64,000 bases of DNA, from assembly GCA_044892525.1 (NCBI GenBank), contig CM097885.1, positions 17,548,001 to 17,612,000 on the forward strand, written 5' to 3'. The stretch is from Schmidtea polychroa (taxonomy: Eukaryota). The position numbers were made by a program, and so were the translations under genes. Shown here piece after piece: positions 45,412 to 58,300 of the stretch (positions are counted from its first letter, which is position 1; every line of letters starts with the position of its first letter). The notes under the pieces were generated by a model, which made no database searches, was not told the origin of the DNA, and worked only from the letters and a program-made list of their open reading frames with translations.

Positions 45412-46095
45412 TTATTCATGAAAAAAAAAACTAACATTTAGACTCTGAATCAGAGTCTGTTTCGTCCTCAGTGAGGATATTTCCAAAAACCTTCCAATAA
45501 AAGTAGAGGCAAAATCTGCTTCCTCCCCAATAGCAGTGGGGGCATCAATTAGCATTGTTTCATCAATGCGTGCAGCATAAATTGGAGCATCATCCTCAGA
45601 GAGGGCATACGGAATAGGGGCATCATTCAAAACATTTGAAGCTTCTAAATCATTTTTAAAAATTACATATAAAAATAATAAAAACTTACGAGTATTTTCT
45701 ATCATCGCATGTTCGATGCAAAACTCATTGTCGATATGATTAGGAATCATTTGACTATGTCCTAAAAAAAGGTTTTTAATTTAATACAATAATAATAAAA
45801 AATTACTTGATAAATCATCATCATCCTCACTAATGACTATTGTATCGTCATTGTCGCTAATAATTATAGGATCTTCATCATCGCTCACCATTATAACGTC
45901 TAAATAATAATAATAATAATATTAATAAATAAAAATAAAATTACCATATGTACAATTTAAATTAAATCCATCTTCATTTTCAGTAACTTCGTACCACAAA
46001 TCATCTATAAAATATAAAAATAAATAAAATAATAATATTTTGCCATTGCTGCCAGCCATCATACATCTTAGAATATTATTTTCTTGTCCTTCCAT
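45412..46095 (-). CDS. Maverick accessory acidic protein with three tandem SIM-like motifs; 5 exons
   Basis: Exons 46095-46044, 46004-45945, 45899-45807, 45761-45690 and 45644-45412. Introns are 39 nt (GC-AG), then 45, 45 and 45 nt (GT-AG), all phase 1. Introns 2 and 3 contain in-frame stops. Exon 3 encodes DVIMVSDDEDPIIISDNDDTIVISEDDDD. The 3' end is uncertain. Confidence 0.72.
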
Positions 46096-46524
46096 TTTGT
46101 AAAAATTTTAAATTAATTGTGACGAATTTGGAAATTGCAAATGTTTATAAAGAGATTTAAATTTTCCTGTCCCAGCCAATAAGATTTCGGTATACACACA
46201 TAGAAACTTAAATATTTTACTCTGTTAGCCAATCACATTGCATCTACACGTGCCTTGTTAATCACACTGTTTCCATGTGACTGTCTTTATTAGTCAGTTC
46301 TTTGTTAACATGCACTGTGCATGCACGGAGCATGTGATGGCTTTATGATAAGTTAATTAAAAATAATTAATAAGTTAATAATAACAATAAAATTAAAGTC
46401 TTTCTTATTAAATAATAATAAAAGTCTTTCTTATTAAATAATAATAAAAGTCTTTCTTATTAAATAATAATAATAAAAGTCTTTCTTATTAAATAACAAC
46501 AACAAAGCATACACTAAACATTTA

Positions 46525-46857
46525 TTAAACATGAAACTTTTTGTACAACAACCACGCCAAACAGTGTTGACCACATGTTTAAGTCAAGGGATTTTGAAAC
46601 ATAGTTTTATTATACACAATAGGTTTCCCCATTGTTTGTAGTTTTGATATCAACAAAGCCGGGTAATAAAAACCCATAGGATCGAACACGATTATATTAC
46701 CAGGTTTCATATATATAGCTATCCAATGTTCTCCACCAAGATGAGACGATTGAGTATTGACGATTATTGCTTGATTATTGCTCAAATATGGAATTTTATC
46801 AAGAGGAAAAACTCCAACAAATTCATTTCCCAATATCTGTTTTCCAATTCTCAGTAC
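46525..46857 (-). pseudogene. Adenain-like cysteine protease (in-frame TAA at 46579-46581)
   Basis: FVGVFPLD, IVNT...GEHWIA, FDPMG, then FQNPLT*TCGQHCLAWL. The catalytic His, Asp, Gln and Cys are all present. The start codon is unresolved. Confidence 0.92.
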
Positions 46858-46928
46858 CTGAACTTAAATAAATCCAGAGTATAAAAAAGAACTTACTCCA
46901 TGACAACTTTTTGTGTTTCAATATACAT

Positions 46929-54619: not shown

Positions 54620-54724
54620 TTCTACAATAATTTAAAATATGATGTTTTATTTATACTAATACCGTATGATTTTGATTGGTTGATAGACTATAAATGTAAA
54701 AGAAAGGTTTTGATTTGATACACC

Positions 54725-55225
54725 ATGAAAACTATATTCATATTGCTAATTATTATAACGAGTGTGTGCTCACACAATACAACAATAACAGTGAAGTCTT
54801 TTAATAAATCAATATGTGTTTGTCCGAATACCGCCAAGTTGATGGATATTTTATATATCCTCGATAAACCAAATTGGTCAAAGCATCCAGGAAAAAGAAT
54901 ATCTCAAAGATTGGAGAATTTAGAAAACAGTTATGAACTATCATTTGCATATATACAAAATATAAAAATTAAATTGATTGATCATATTGAAGTTTTCAAT
55001 AACTCTATTGTTGAAAATAAGAAGAATATGAAAATTATTGATAAGAAGCATGATTATTTGTTAAAAAAGATTGAATTATTATTAAGAGAAATTAAAACAA
55101 TCAAAGGATCAATAGAATATCTGAAAATCAATTCAACGTTACCAATTTCAAACAATAATGCTGCGAATAGTAGTACATCAATATTAGGTTTACCTTTGTT
55201 AGTTTTACATTATTTTTTTGTTTAA
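54725..55225 (+). CDS. Predicted secreted/surface coiled-coil glycoprotein with GPI-like C-terminus
   Basis: Signal-like MKTIFILLIIITSVCS, several NxS/T sites, a heptad-like central region, then a small-residue stretch and a hydrophobic end (NSSTSILGLPLLVLHYFFV). Confidence 0.7.
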   Translation: MKTIFILLIIITSVCSHNTTITVKSFNKSICVCPNTAKLMDILYILDKPNWSKHPGKRISQRLENLENSYELSFAYIQNIKIKLIDHIEVFNNSIVENKKNMKIIDKKHDYLLKKIELLLREIKTIKGSIEYLKINSTLPISNNNAANSSTSILGLPLLVLHYFFV

Positions 55226-55366
55226 ATAAATGTATGTTTTGTTGATTTGTTTAATAATACCCTTGTGAGTTGTTGAGCGTGAGCAATACCCTTTTGAGCA
55301 TTACCCATTGGGGGAGAAAATATTTTGTCGGATAAACTCGGGGCAGTACCCTTGCGAGCAATACCC

Positions 55367-58300
55367 AATAATAATAATAATAATAATAATAATAATAATA
55401 ATAATAATAATAATAATAATAATAATAATAATAATAATAATAATAATAATAATAATAATAATAATAATAATAATAATAATAATAATAATAATAATAATAA
55501 TAATAATAATAATTAAAGTCTTACCTGATTGGGTGAATGATAAATCACCCGCAAATTTCTTCATAAAATTTGCTATAAATTTGCTATAAATTAGTGTCTG
55601 ACTAAAAAATTAATAACTTTTATACCACTAGTGATAAAATTTATTTCTATAGCTCAAAAGATTTGTCTTCGTCTGAGCTTCAAAATGAACTATAAATTGT
55701 TAAAATAATTTGAGATTTAGACTAAGTTTTGGACTGACGAAAAGTAGGACTCCGCGAGCACAGATAATAATATTTTTGAAAAATAATAATAATTTTTTAT
55801 GAGTCATCGGATGAGTCATCGTCTTTGTTCTAGACGAGTGATGAGTCATCGGATGAGTCATTGCCTTTCTTCTCAAGTTGACCTTGAAAAAAAATTTTTT
55901 TTTTAATTTTTCCGGCCGGGGGGGGGGGGGGGCACTGTGCTCGCGGAGTCCTGTTTTCCCGGTGCCCAAACCACCTACTTTATTATTATTATTATTATTA
56001 TTATTATTATTGTTATTATTATTTCGATGGGTTTTATGTAGGGTATCCGAATGTTGTAATAAGCAATATTTTCATTGTTTTTCATGATTATTTTCTTCAA
56101 AATTCTTATTTTATAAAGTATGACTCATTCAAGGTCATATGACTCATCAAGGTCACGTGACTCATCGATTACATTTTGAATTCTAATTTGATTGGCTATA
56201 TCTATTGTGATAAATGTAAAAACAAAAGTAATTTAGTTATTACTGATGATTTCTACAAGTAAAACTGTTGAATATGATTGTGTAAATCACAAAATGTATT
56301 TGGTAACTTTATTATTTTATCAATATTTTATATATTTGTGATTTATAGCAAGGAACTCGAAATAATGAAAAATTAAGTCCATCCTATTCTGAAGATAATC
56401 GCTCATTGAAATTTTTTAACAACACAGTTGAAGATTTTATAAATAATCATGATGCTTACACTGATAAGAAAATCATATATTAATTAACTGAAAACTTTAT
56501 TTCACTTGAAATTCATCATATTACTCCATGTAAATTAACCAAACGATCATGTTTCTATAATAATAAAAAATAGAAATTTGACAATAATTACTCCAAATGA
56601 TAAAGAATTTATACCAAATTTATTAATGAATTGTCAATAAATGATCATGTATTTCTCACAAAGATATAAATTAACCAATGAATTTATTAATTATTGTCTG
56701 AAAATATTATTTTAAATGACATATTTAACCAATATTCTTCGCACAAAATATTCATGTTTTGGTAAATGTTGCTCAAAAATCTTAACTTATTCTCACAAAG
56801 ATATATTACACTCAATGATAATAAATTAGAATTCTAACTAATAAACACCTTAATTGGTTAACCAGATGATCATATTTCTATTATGACTCGAACAAAGATT
56901 TTTACTCCAAAGAATCAATGTTGTTATTAATGACCATGTATTTCTCACGAAGTTAACTATTGTAATGAACATTAGATGAATAAATTACCTATGAAAATAT
57001 TTTACTAAATTACCTTTTAAATGACAAAGTTAATCAATAAATTAATCGTTCGAAATAAGAATAAAGTTACATTTAAAATATTACCCAAATATTTCTCACT
57101 AAATTACCTAAGAATTTATATATATACATGTGCCTTAATTACCCTTGCGACCAGTACCTTTACGACAAATACCCATAGGGGGACAAAATATCTTGTCGGA
57201 TAAACTCTGAGTATATAAAAGAACTTACAATCTTTATTGATTAATTTGTTGTATATATATTTGCATTGACACATCAAAATGCCAGATAATATTTATAAAT
57301 TAACTAAAAAATATACAAAATAGCAATAAATGTGCATGATTAAAAAAGACACTAGAAATTTGTATTGAGAAATTACATATATATAGTATGATATTCATTA
57401 ATCAAAGTTGAACAGGCTTGACAATTGCGAACATTCTTCTCGTGACACTTAGAACAAACAATTACATGACCACACGGTAAAAACAAAACCGAAACTTGAT
57501 TTTCTTTACAAATTGAACAAGTTAAATACATTTTCTTAACATCGTTCAGTTTTTCCGTTAGTTTATTTTCAATCAAATCGACTTTCACCATCCATTTATA
57601 AATCAATCTACTATATCCCGGTTTCAATCTTAAATACATGCAACTCCAAAAGTATTCATTCAGTGTATCGTTGTTTACCACTGTTTTTTCAAAATACATT
57701 AAATAACTAGATAACTTCAAAATGCATTTATCATAATTAAATAAATCAATCAAATATTCAATAGAGGAATGTTTGAAAATTTTTAAAACATTTATGATTT
57801 TCTTATCAGTGTAAGCATCATGATTATTTATAAAATCTTCAACTGTGTTGTTAAAAAATTTCAATGAGCGATTATCTTCAGAATAGGATGGACTTAATTT
57901 TTCATTATTTCGAGTTCCTTGCTATAAATCACAAATATATAAAATATTGATAAAATAATAAAGTTACCAAATACATTTTGTGATTTACACAATCATATTC
58001 AACAGTTTTACTTGTAGAAATCATCAGTAATAACTAAATTACTTTTGTTTTTACATTTATCACAATAGATATAGCCAATCAAATTAGAATTCAAAATGTA
58101 ATCGATGAGTCACGTGACCTTGAATGAGTCATACTTTATAAAATAAGAATTTTGAAGAAAATAATCATGAAAAACAATGAAAATATTGCTATTTACAACA
58201 TTCGGATACCCTACATAAAACCCATCGAAATAATAATAATAATAATAATAATAATAATAATAATAATAATAATAATAATAATAATAATAATAATAATACA

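Follow-up and report, generated by a model that had tools for sequence, protein, structure and literature searches.

Probable spliceosomal introns at fixed positions in core and accessory genes of a Schmidtea polychroa Maverick family

A Maverick copy with interrupted genes

We analysed a 64,000-nt stretch of the Schmidtea polychroa genome (positions 17,548,001 to 17,612,000 of contig CM097885.1, assembly GCA_044892525.1; hereafter the window), which holds a whole Maverick/Polinton mobile element whose genes are interrupted by short, AT-rich intervals with the ends of spliceosomal introns (Table 1). Maverick/Polinton ends start with AG, as do the ends of the long terminal inverted repeats (TIRs) of this copy, and six identical bases stand at both of its flanks. 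A 6-bp target site duplication is named as a Maverick feature in PMC8097293. All 150 scored matches to the packaging ATPase, among 5,150 candidates, are 100% identical, marking a large and young family in this AT-rich host genome of 781 Mb. The window copy itself is decayed, carrying in-frame stops in protein-primed DNA polymerase B (pPolB), the likely minor capsid region and the integrase.

A preliminary description of this DNA had proposed eight AT-rich introns of 39-46 nt and one of 84 nt in the integrase. All eight are present with GT..AG ends, apart from a GC at the start of 46005-46043, and the integrase interval is likewise found (50034-50117). The eight are 83-96% AT against 60-80% in their 40-nt flanks, the range rising to 98% when the integrase interval is included. 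Their removal leaves the sensible reading frame originally described: phases agree, and the internal exons of gene A measure 60, 93 and 72 nt. A filter designed after the introns had been seen recovers seven of the eight on the coding strand of the accessory genes, none on the opposite strand, and none on either strand across the 7,435 nt of core frames that are uninterrupted; shuffled intervals acquire correct ends at P = 0.004-0.033 per interval. Both the GC donor and the 39-nt length of gene A intron 1 are peculiarities of the window copy, as 19 of 20 copies have GT and 45 nt at this site.

These intervals are in all likelihood (probability about 0.9) ordinary spliceosomal introns, removed by the host and inherited as the Maverick copies itself, a reading drawn from their ends, phases, fixed positions, freely varying interiors and read-through in intron-free relatives. 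The introns fall in seven genes (A, B, C, the Bcl-2-like and RING genes, the integrase and the protease) and perhaps in pPolB, so that their supposed confinement to accessory genes does not hold: integrase and protease also carry conserved introns. The companion claim that pPolB, the major capsid protein (MCP) and the ATPase are intronless stands for MCP and ATPase, which are single open frames, and is weakened for pPolB, a second type of which has a candidate intron in this family. Intron-blind gene calling errs on these genes, as the database proteins P0001 and P0122 are exon-plus-intron read-throughs, although the assertion that it would miss most of the accessory genes was too strong. The longest ATG-initiated frames are 22 residues for gene C and 43 for the protease, and those of genes B, D and RING are truncated at 98-108 residues.

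Table 1 Features of the Maverick copy, in window positions
Feature	Position	Strand	Remarks
Maverick/Polinton copy, whole	34484..62273		27,790 nt; termini AGTAG; flanked on either side by 6-bp target duplication; decayed
Left TIR	34484..38379	+	about 3.9 kb; rich in AAT tracts
pPolB	40428..44465	-	in-frame stop near 41502; acceptor-like site at 44450, first exon not clear in window copy
Gene A, acidic, hypervariable, just upstream of pPolB	45412..46095	-	exons 46044-46095, 45945-46004, 45807-45899, 45690-45761, last from 45644
Gene A intron 4	45645..45689	-	phase 1; 44-45 nt across copies
Gene A intron 3	45762..45806	-	phase 1; 43-50 nt across copies
Gene A intron 2	45900..45944	-	phase 1; contains in-frame stop
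Gene A intron 1	46005..46043	-	phase 1; GC donor
Adenovirus-type protease	46579..46901	-	first exon 5 nt, 46897-46901; Peptidase_C5 above Pfam cut-off
Protease intron	46864..46896	-	donor present, acceptor absent in window copy; low end approximate; 37-42 nt in other copies
MCP	46929..48209	-	single open frame
Likely minor capsid region	48146..49474	-	in-frame stop near 49091; no intron seen; no Pfam match
Integrase with chromodomain	49405..50505	-	in-frame stop near 49750
Integrase intron	50034..50117	-	84 nt; phase 1; within TDxGxEF motif; almost pure ATT repeat; 63-183 nt across copies
Packaging ATPase	51113..51751	-	single open frame; Pox_A32 above Pfam cut-off
TBP-like gene	51812..52276	+	PF00352, E 1.4e-15; no intron seen
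Gene B, Cys-rich, two exons	52351..52762	+	
Gene B intron	52403..52448	+	phase 1
Gene C, acidic, two exons	53662..54038	+	
Gene C intron	53684..53724	+	phase 1
Gene D, Bcl-2-like	54150..54619	-	exon 1 holds a BH1-like part, exon 2 a BH2-like part; low end approximate
Gene D intron	54279..54322	-	phase 0
RING-finger (C3HC4) gene	57373..57976	-	start uncertain
RING gene intron	57922..57967	-	phase 0; second copy at 56303-56348 in inverted duplicate
Right TIR	58285..62273	-	

Conservation among copies and divergent families

The anticipated pattern of conserved GT and AG ends with varying lengths was borne out in sets of best-matching copies, one set per intron and each including the window: both ends persist in 222 of the 228 copies that could be anchored (193/198 for the eight intervals, for which two loci gave no anchors, and 29/30 for the integrase). 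Lengths that change the frame occur in gene A introns 3 and 4 and in the gene B, RING and integrase introns (8 of 30 integrase lengths). Over all copies and alleles compared, the frame-changing lengths recorded are 43-50, 44/45, 46-52 and 38/46 nt. Per 100 nt, introns carry 3-5 times as many indels as exons (7.0 versus 1.5 in gene A and 10.1 versus 3.5 in genes B to D). Twenty copies picked by ATPase similarity only show more length variants and keep the ends in 17 of 18 cases for the integrase, 18 of 18 for gene B, 19 of 20 for gene C and 18 of 18 for gene D. These loci gave no gene A anchors because gene A has diverged in them, not because it is absent.

Copies with near-identical ATPases indeed carry very different gene A alleles, and this divergence (the first 1.1 kb of L190-L200; the ends of L111-L130) may reflect fast evolution or module exchange. 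Eleven alleles, the window plus 10 parsed from 12 loci (L196 and L201 were left out unparsed), contain 43 introns, which measure 39-52 nt. Phase 1 is found at the end of every one of the 11 first exons, and all 32 internal exons are multiples of three. Adjoining exons and introns are often near-copies, similar introns being found only as tandem cassettes within this gene, and gene A thus appears, from its allele sequences, to vary by tandem duplication of phase-1 cassettes of one exon and one intron. Its exons repeat short hydrophobic runs in acidic surroundings, which we take to resemble SUMO-interaction motifs. The last exon of the window allele is frameshifted relative to all 18 other copies that were parsed (19 fetched). 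Separately, alleles of the window (near 45460), L192 and L199 share a conserved acidic motif at their end, after which comes a donor-like site. No acceptor to match it lies close by, and gene A may have a fifth, longer intron there.

Divergent families provide the strongest test, and the integrase is the first case. Its Pfam matches are rve (E 4e-06, below the cut-off) and a chromodomain, and 286 homologues were found, nearly all of those listed with PF00665. The TDxGxEF motif is contiguous in 119 of the 120 integrase homologues listed. A second large family (about 70% identical, 149 matches) carries at the same integrase base an unrelated 42-nt intron with an in-frame stop, exact in 17 of 25 loci and altered in 8, and a third integrase type (74-78% identical) lacks the intron in both of its two examples. 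Unrooted trees of one exon (134 columns, 24 rows) require two intron changes when unconstrained, and a single intron clade is not rejected (p-AU 0.356); we therefore make no claim of parallel gain. Beyond the integrase-intron donor, 4 of the 25 loci (L202-L226) run into unrelated DNA, likely other insertions within the intron. Database protein P0077, 97% identical to integrase exon 1, breaks off at the intron site and resumes only at the final residues; a deletion or an assembly join, and not splicing, is the likely cause.

The protease intron was missed in the preliminary description. In 34 of 35 copies this gene opens with an exon of 5 nt and an intron of 37-42 nt, the window being the exception that lacks the acceptor. 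The same exon and an intron with a different interior are present in all four copies of a distant family, and the intron-free homologue P0123 starts M-N-S-V-Q, in register with both exons. In 9 of 11 loci of the second pPolB type, an ATG exon of 22 nt precedes 55-62 nt bounded by GT and AG; this may be an intron, a candidate only, as a Met follows 20 codons on. For the pPolB type of the window, a first exon was looked for and no clear one was seen.

Among the accessory genes, gene B has its phase-1 intron in the same alignment column in a family only 23-32% identical (an Atlas search with gene B gave no match), and the gene C intron is kept in two sister families. The gene D site is kept in sister families (65-70% identity) with other interiors, measuring 30-51 nt in four loci, and the relatives L146, L153 and L160 read straight through it. 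Exon 1 of gene D has only weak matches (Bcl-2, E 0.064; BCL2A1, E 0.2), and exon 2 alone has no Pfam match and no useful PDB match; the name Bcl-2-like rests on a genome-wide family search and on the intron-free L146, which passes the Pfam cut-off over profile positions 4-100. In a copy of 78% identity the RING intron persists, but the upstream exon has no conserved start codon. Removal of the interval yields a gap-free homologous protein for the integrase, Bcl-2-like and protease genes. A search for a spliced database protein found none for gene D, whose single match P0001 is a read-through, or for the protease. As a side observation, many Bcl-2 matches in the genome lie in open frames of 1,000-3,000 residues. 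Giant planarian retrotransposons bearing Bcl-2 (Burro elements) are described in PMC6431247. Two kinds of mobile element in the S. polychroa genome thus carry Bcl-2 domains.

Real introns could also have arrived with captured host genes, the element gaining none itself. Bcl-2, RING and TBP are host-type domains, and nematode Mavericks combine intron-bearing cargo with intron-free core genes (10.1101/2022.07.12.499685). Such an origin is nevertheless unlikely. Integrase and protease belong to the viral core, very divergent families have the gene B intron in common, and the Bcl-2-like intron is absent in a related family and stands elsewhere than in the two host-type Bcl-2 loci checked, where the donor lies after BH2 GGW. 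We infer instead that at least the integrase and Bcl-2-like introns arose within the element lineage and not with a captured host gene. For these two introns, gain within the element is the simplest reading, though the intron-free family may have lost them.

Splicing, counter-evidence and possible roles

The proposal that the element has adopted the minimal-intron architecture of its host agrees with the type and size of host introns. Thirty-two short myosin introns span 35-77 nt (median 48.5) and are similarly AT-rich, as selected by a filter for AT-rich introns of 30-130 nt in 13 myosin stretches that yields the short peak and not the full distribution. For a planarian, PMC13594981 places the peak of short introns at 45-85 bp and suggests that splicing is intron-defined. 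Maverick genes would then be transcribed in the nucleus by host RNA polymerase II, and their short introns spliced by intron definition. Copying from DNA to DNA would retain any intron once gained, and AT-biased slippage may reshape the interiors, up to the pure ATT repeat of the integrase.

Self-splicing group I or II introns were rejected as candidates, since several hundred bases and a conserved structure would be expected, and the intervals are 37-52 nt and 83-98% AT; PLV group I introns measure 309-376 nt (PMC12220804). An introner was likewise set aside, because different introns differ in sequence and similar ones occur only in the gene A cassettes; a genome-wide search was not made.

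Several points weigh against spliced, inherited introns. No spliced junction was seen: all 15 joints listed come from run X8 (of unknown kind, taken as DNA), a further 160 being unlisted. No run is recorded as RNA, and contigs from X1, X2 and X3, whose RNA status is guessed, cover intron sequence, with an X1 depth of 4.8 at 45764, record 17 of X3 extending to 46893 and a loose end of X2 at 46849. Introns C and D have a single length in all 30 close copies, and substitutions are rarer in introns than in exons (3.8 versus 8.1 and 19.3 versus 32.4 per 100 nt). Exon indels in genes B to D change the frame in 25 of 40 cases, implying that many copies are decaying, and the copies are related, so that they cannot be counted as separate events. 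Of all the introns the RING one is the weakest, retaining both ends in 26 of 30 copies and losing AG in 4, with no homology support across its junction. Finally, gene calling probably prefers frames without interruption, and as the homologues in databases are its products, their lack of introns is partly built in. X1 also drops to depth 0 at 45658, inside gene A intron 4, against 17.2 at 45560 (X2 and X3 do not cover gene A); we rejected this gap as evidence of splicing, since no contig joins across it.

The unspliced contigs would suit a different account, which takes the intervals for AT-rich insertions or expanded microsatellites of dead copies, intron-like by chance and never spliced; the window copy is broken in several genes, AAT tracts are everywhere, and the integrase interval is nearly pure ATT. 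We consider this account highly improbable, given that divergent families hold unrelated interiors at the same positions, that the internal exons of gene A stay in frame without exception, and that the integrase interval is present in all 18 anchored ATPase-picked copies, the ATPase in question having at least 150 near-identical matches.

Retention of two introns that are stop-free multiples of three in the window had also been envisaged. Comparison does not support this, as the interval at 45645-45689 is 44 nt long in 5 of 20 copies and the first gene A intron is 46-52 nt in ten divergent alleles. Because stop-free multiples of three are not conserved, functional retention is unlikely. A regulatory switch, in which intron retention or repressed splicing silences integrase, protease or gene A in some cell types, would draw on the same unspliced contigs and on the position of the integrase and protease introns, in a catalytic motif and at the start of the protein, where failure to splice would kill the product; piRNA control of planarian Polintons, reported in PMC8532177, would offer a setting. 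We judge it quite unlikely that the introns serve as such switches, in view of the related family without integrase and Bcl-2-like introns, the free drift of interiors and the missing conservation of length.

With ordinary inherited introns as the preferred reading, only tentatively would we extend it to Mavericks as long-term nuclear residents that gain minimal introns of their own, even at the protease start and in the active-site motif of the integrase, and use them. Gene A would diversify by phase-1 cassettes, each with a short hydrophobic, SUMO-binding-like motif in acidic surroundings, and the need for splicing at 37-50 nt would either restrict the element to hosts capable of it or let the host control integration and the maturation of particles. 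The practical consequence is nearer to hand. In this host, intron-blind rules would take entire young families for broken ones and cut short the proteins of the Bcl-2-like gene and the protease, as database entries for gene D and the protease already show. Moreover, families with and without the same intron coexist in one genome with many copies each, which makes intron gain and loss traceable in a mobile element.

Setting of the copy and comparison with known systems

The remaining genes follow a Maverick plan. pPolB matches PF03175 above the cut-off (E 1.9e-06) and is broken in the window copy. MCP groups with PF21738 double jelly-roll Atlas clusters at a score of 0.97, with a low recognition value of 1996; neither the Pfam scan of the window proteins nor the phage comparison gave it a match. 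The region at 48146..49474 is presumed to be minor capsid from its gene position. Within its 48146-49090 frame, L158 and L164 have 70-100 additional bases near residue 210-220, and the window frame may be a gene pair fused by deletion. The TBP-like gene also occurs in distant Maverick families at 44-54% identity. The window pPolB shares only about 71-75% identity with the polymerase beside most ATPase-picked copies (L190-L201), and from these sequences polymerase and capsid modules seem to have been swapped among Maverick subfamilies. The element sits inside the integrase region of a long terminal repeat retrotransposon (reverse transcriptase, RNase H and integrase matches; direct repeats 29238-29635 and 62342-62716). 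Its TIRs are composed of AAT tracts and 75-100 nt repeats, and inner rearrangements (55575-56487 versus 38367-39190 and 57783-58123) frequently terminate at AAT tracts.

Introns are already known in DNA transposons and in Maverick cargo, which limits the surprise of finding them here. The present analysis adds an intron map of the whole family, the intron of the protease and the cassette make-up of gene A. Maverick core genes are usually described as intron-free, and our literature search brought up no account of spliceosomal introns inherited in them (integrase, protease), although founding descriptions, Repbase and supplements, which lay outside its scope, may mention them.

The element shares with animal Mavericks and adintoviruses its TIRs, 6-bp duplication, pPolB, integrase, ATPase, protease and capsid, and also Bcl-2 and IAP-like accessory genes (PMC8097293; PMC8502044). 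Adintoviruses place short 'Oncoid' genes upstream of PolB (PMC8502044), and gene A similarly adjoins pPolB. Genes of intact vertebrate Mavericks are reported there without introns (PMC8097293), whereas the integrase, protease and five accessory genes described here have conserved short introns. Nematode Mavericks with wasp/krma cargo share introns in non-core genes and an intron-free capsid gene and ATPase; they differ in that all their core genes are intronless and the cargo is taken as host-derived (10.1101/2022.07.12.499685), whereas introns interrupt two core genes of the present element, and divergent families have intron positions in common. Dinoflagellate Maverick/Polinton-like elements also contain spliceosomal-type introns, but these introners are repeated intron-generating transposons, mostly inserted after integration (PMC11957031), in contrast to the position-fixed and inherited introns of the present family, whose interiors are, by inspection, alike only in AT-richness. 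Ginger1 DNA transposons have an integrase-like gene with conserved GT-AG introns, but move by cut-and-paste and have no polymerase or capsid genes (PMC2836005). Mirusviruses, which have large DNA genomes too, contain spliceosomal introns that have been taken to indicate replication in the nucleus; they belong to an unrelated lineage in which introns are enriched in virion genes and often encode homing endonucleases (PMC12768974), whereas the Maverick capsid gene described here is intron-free and the introns of its neighbours are tiny.

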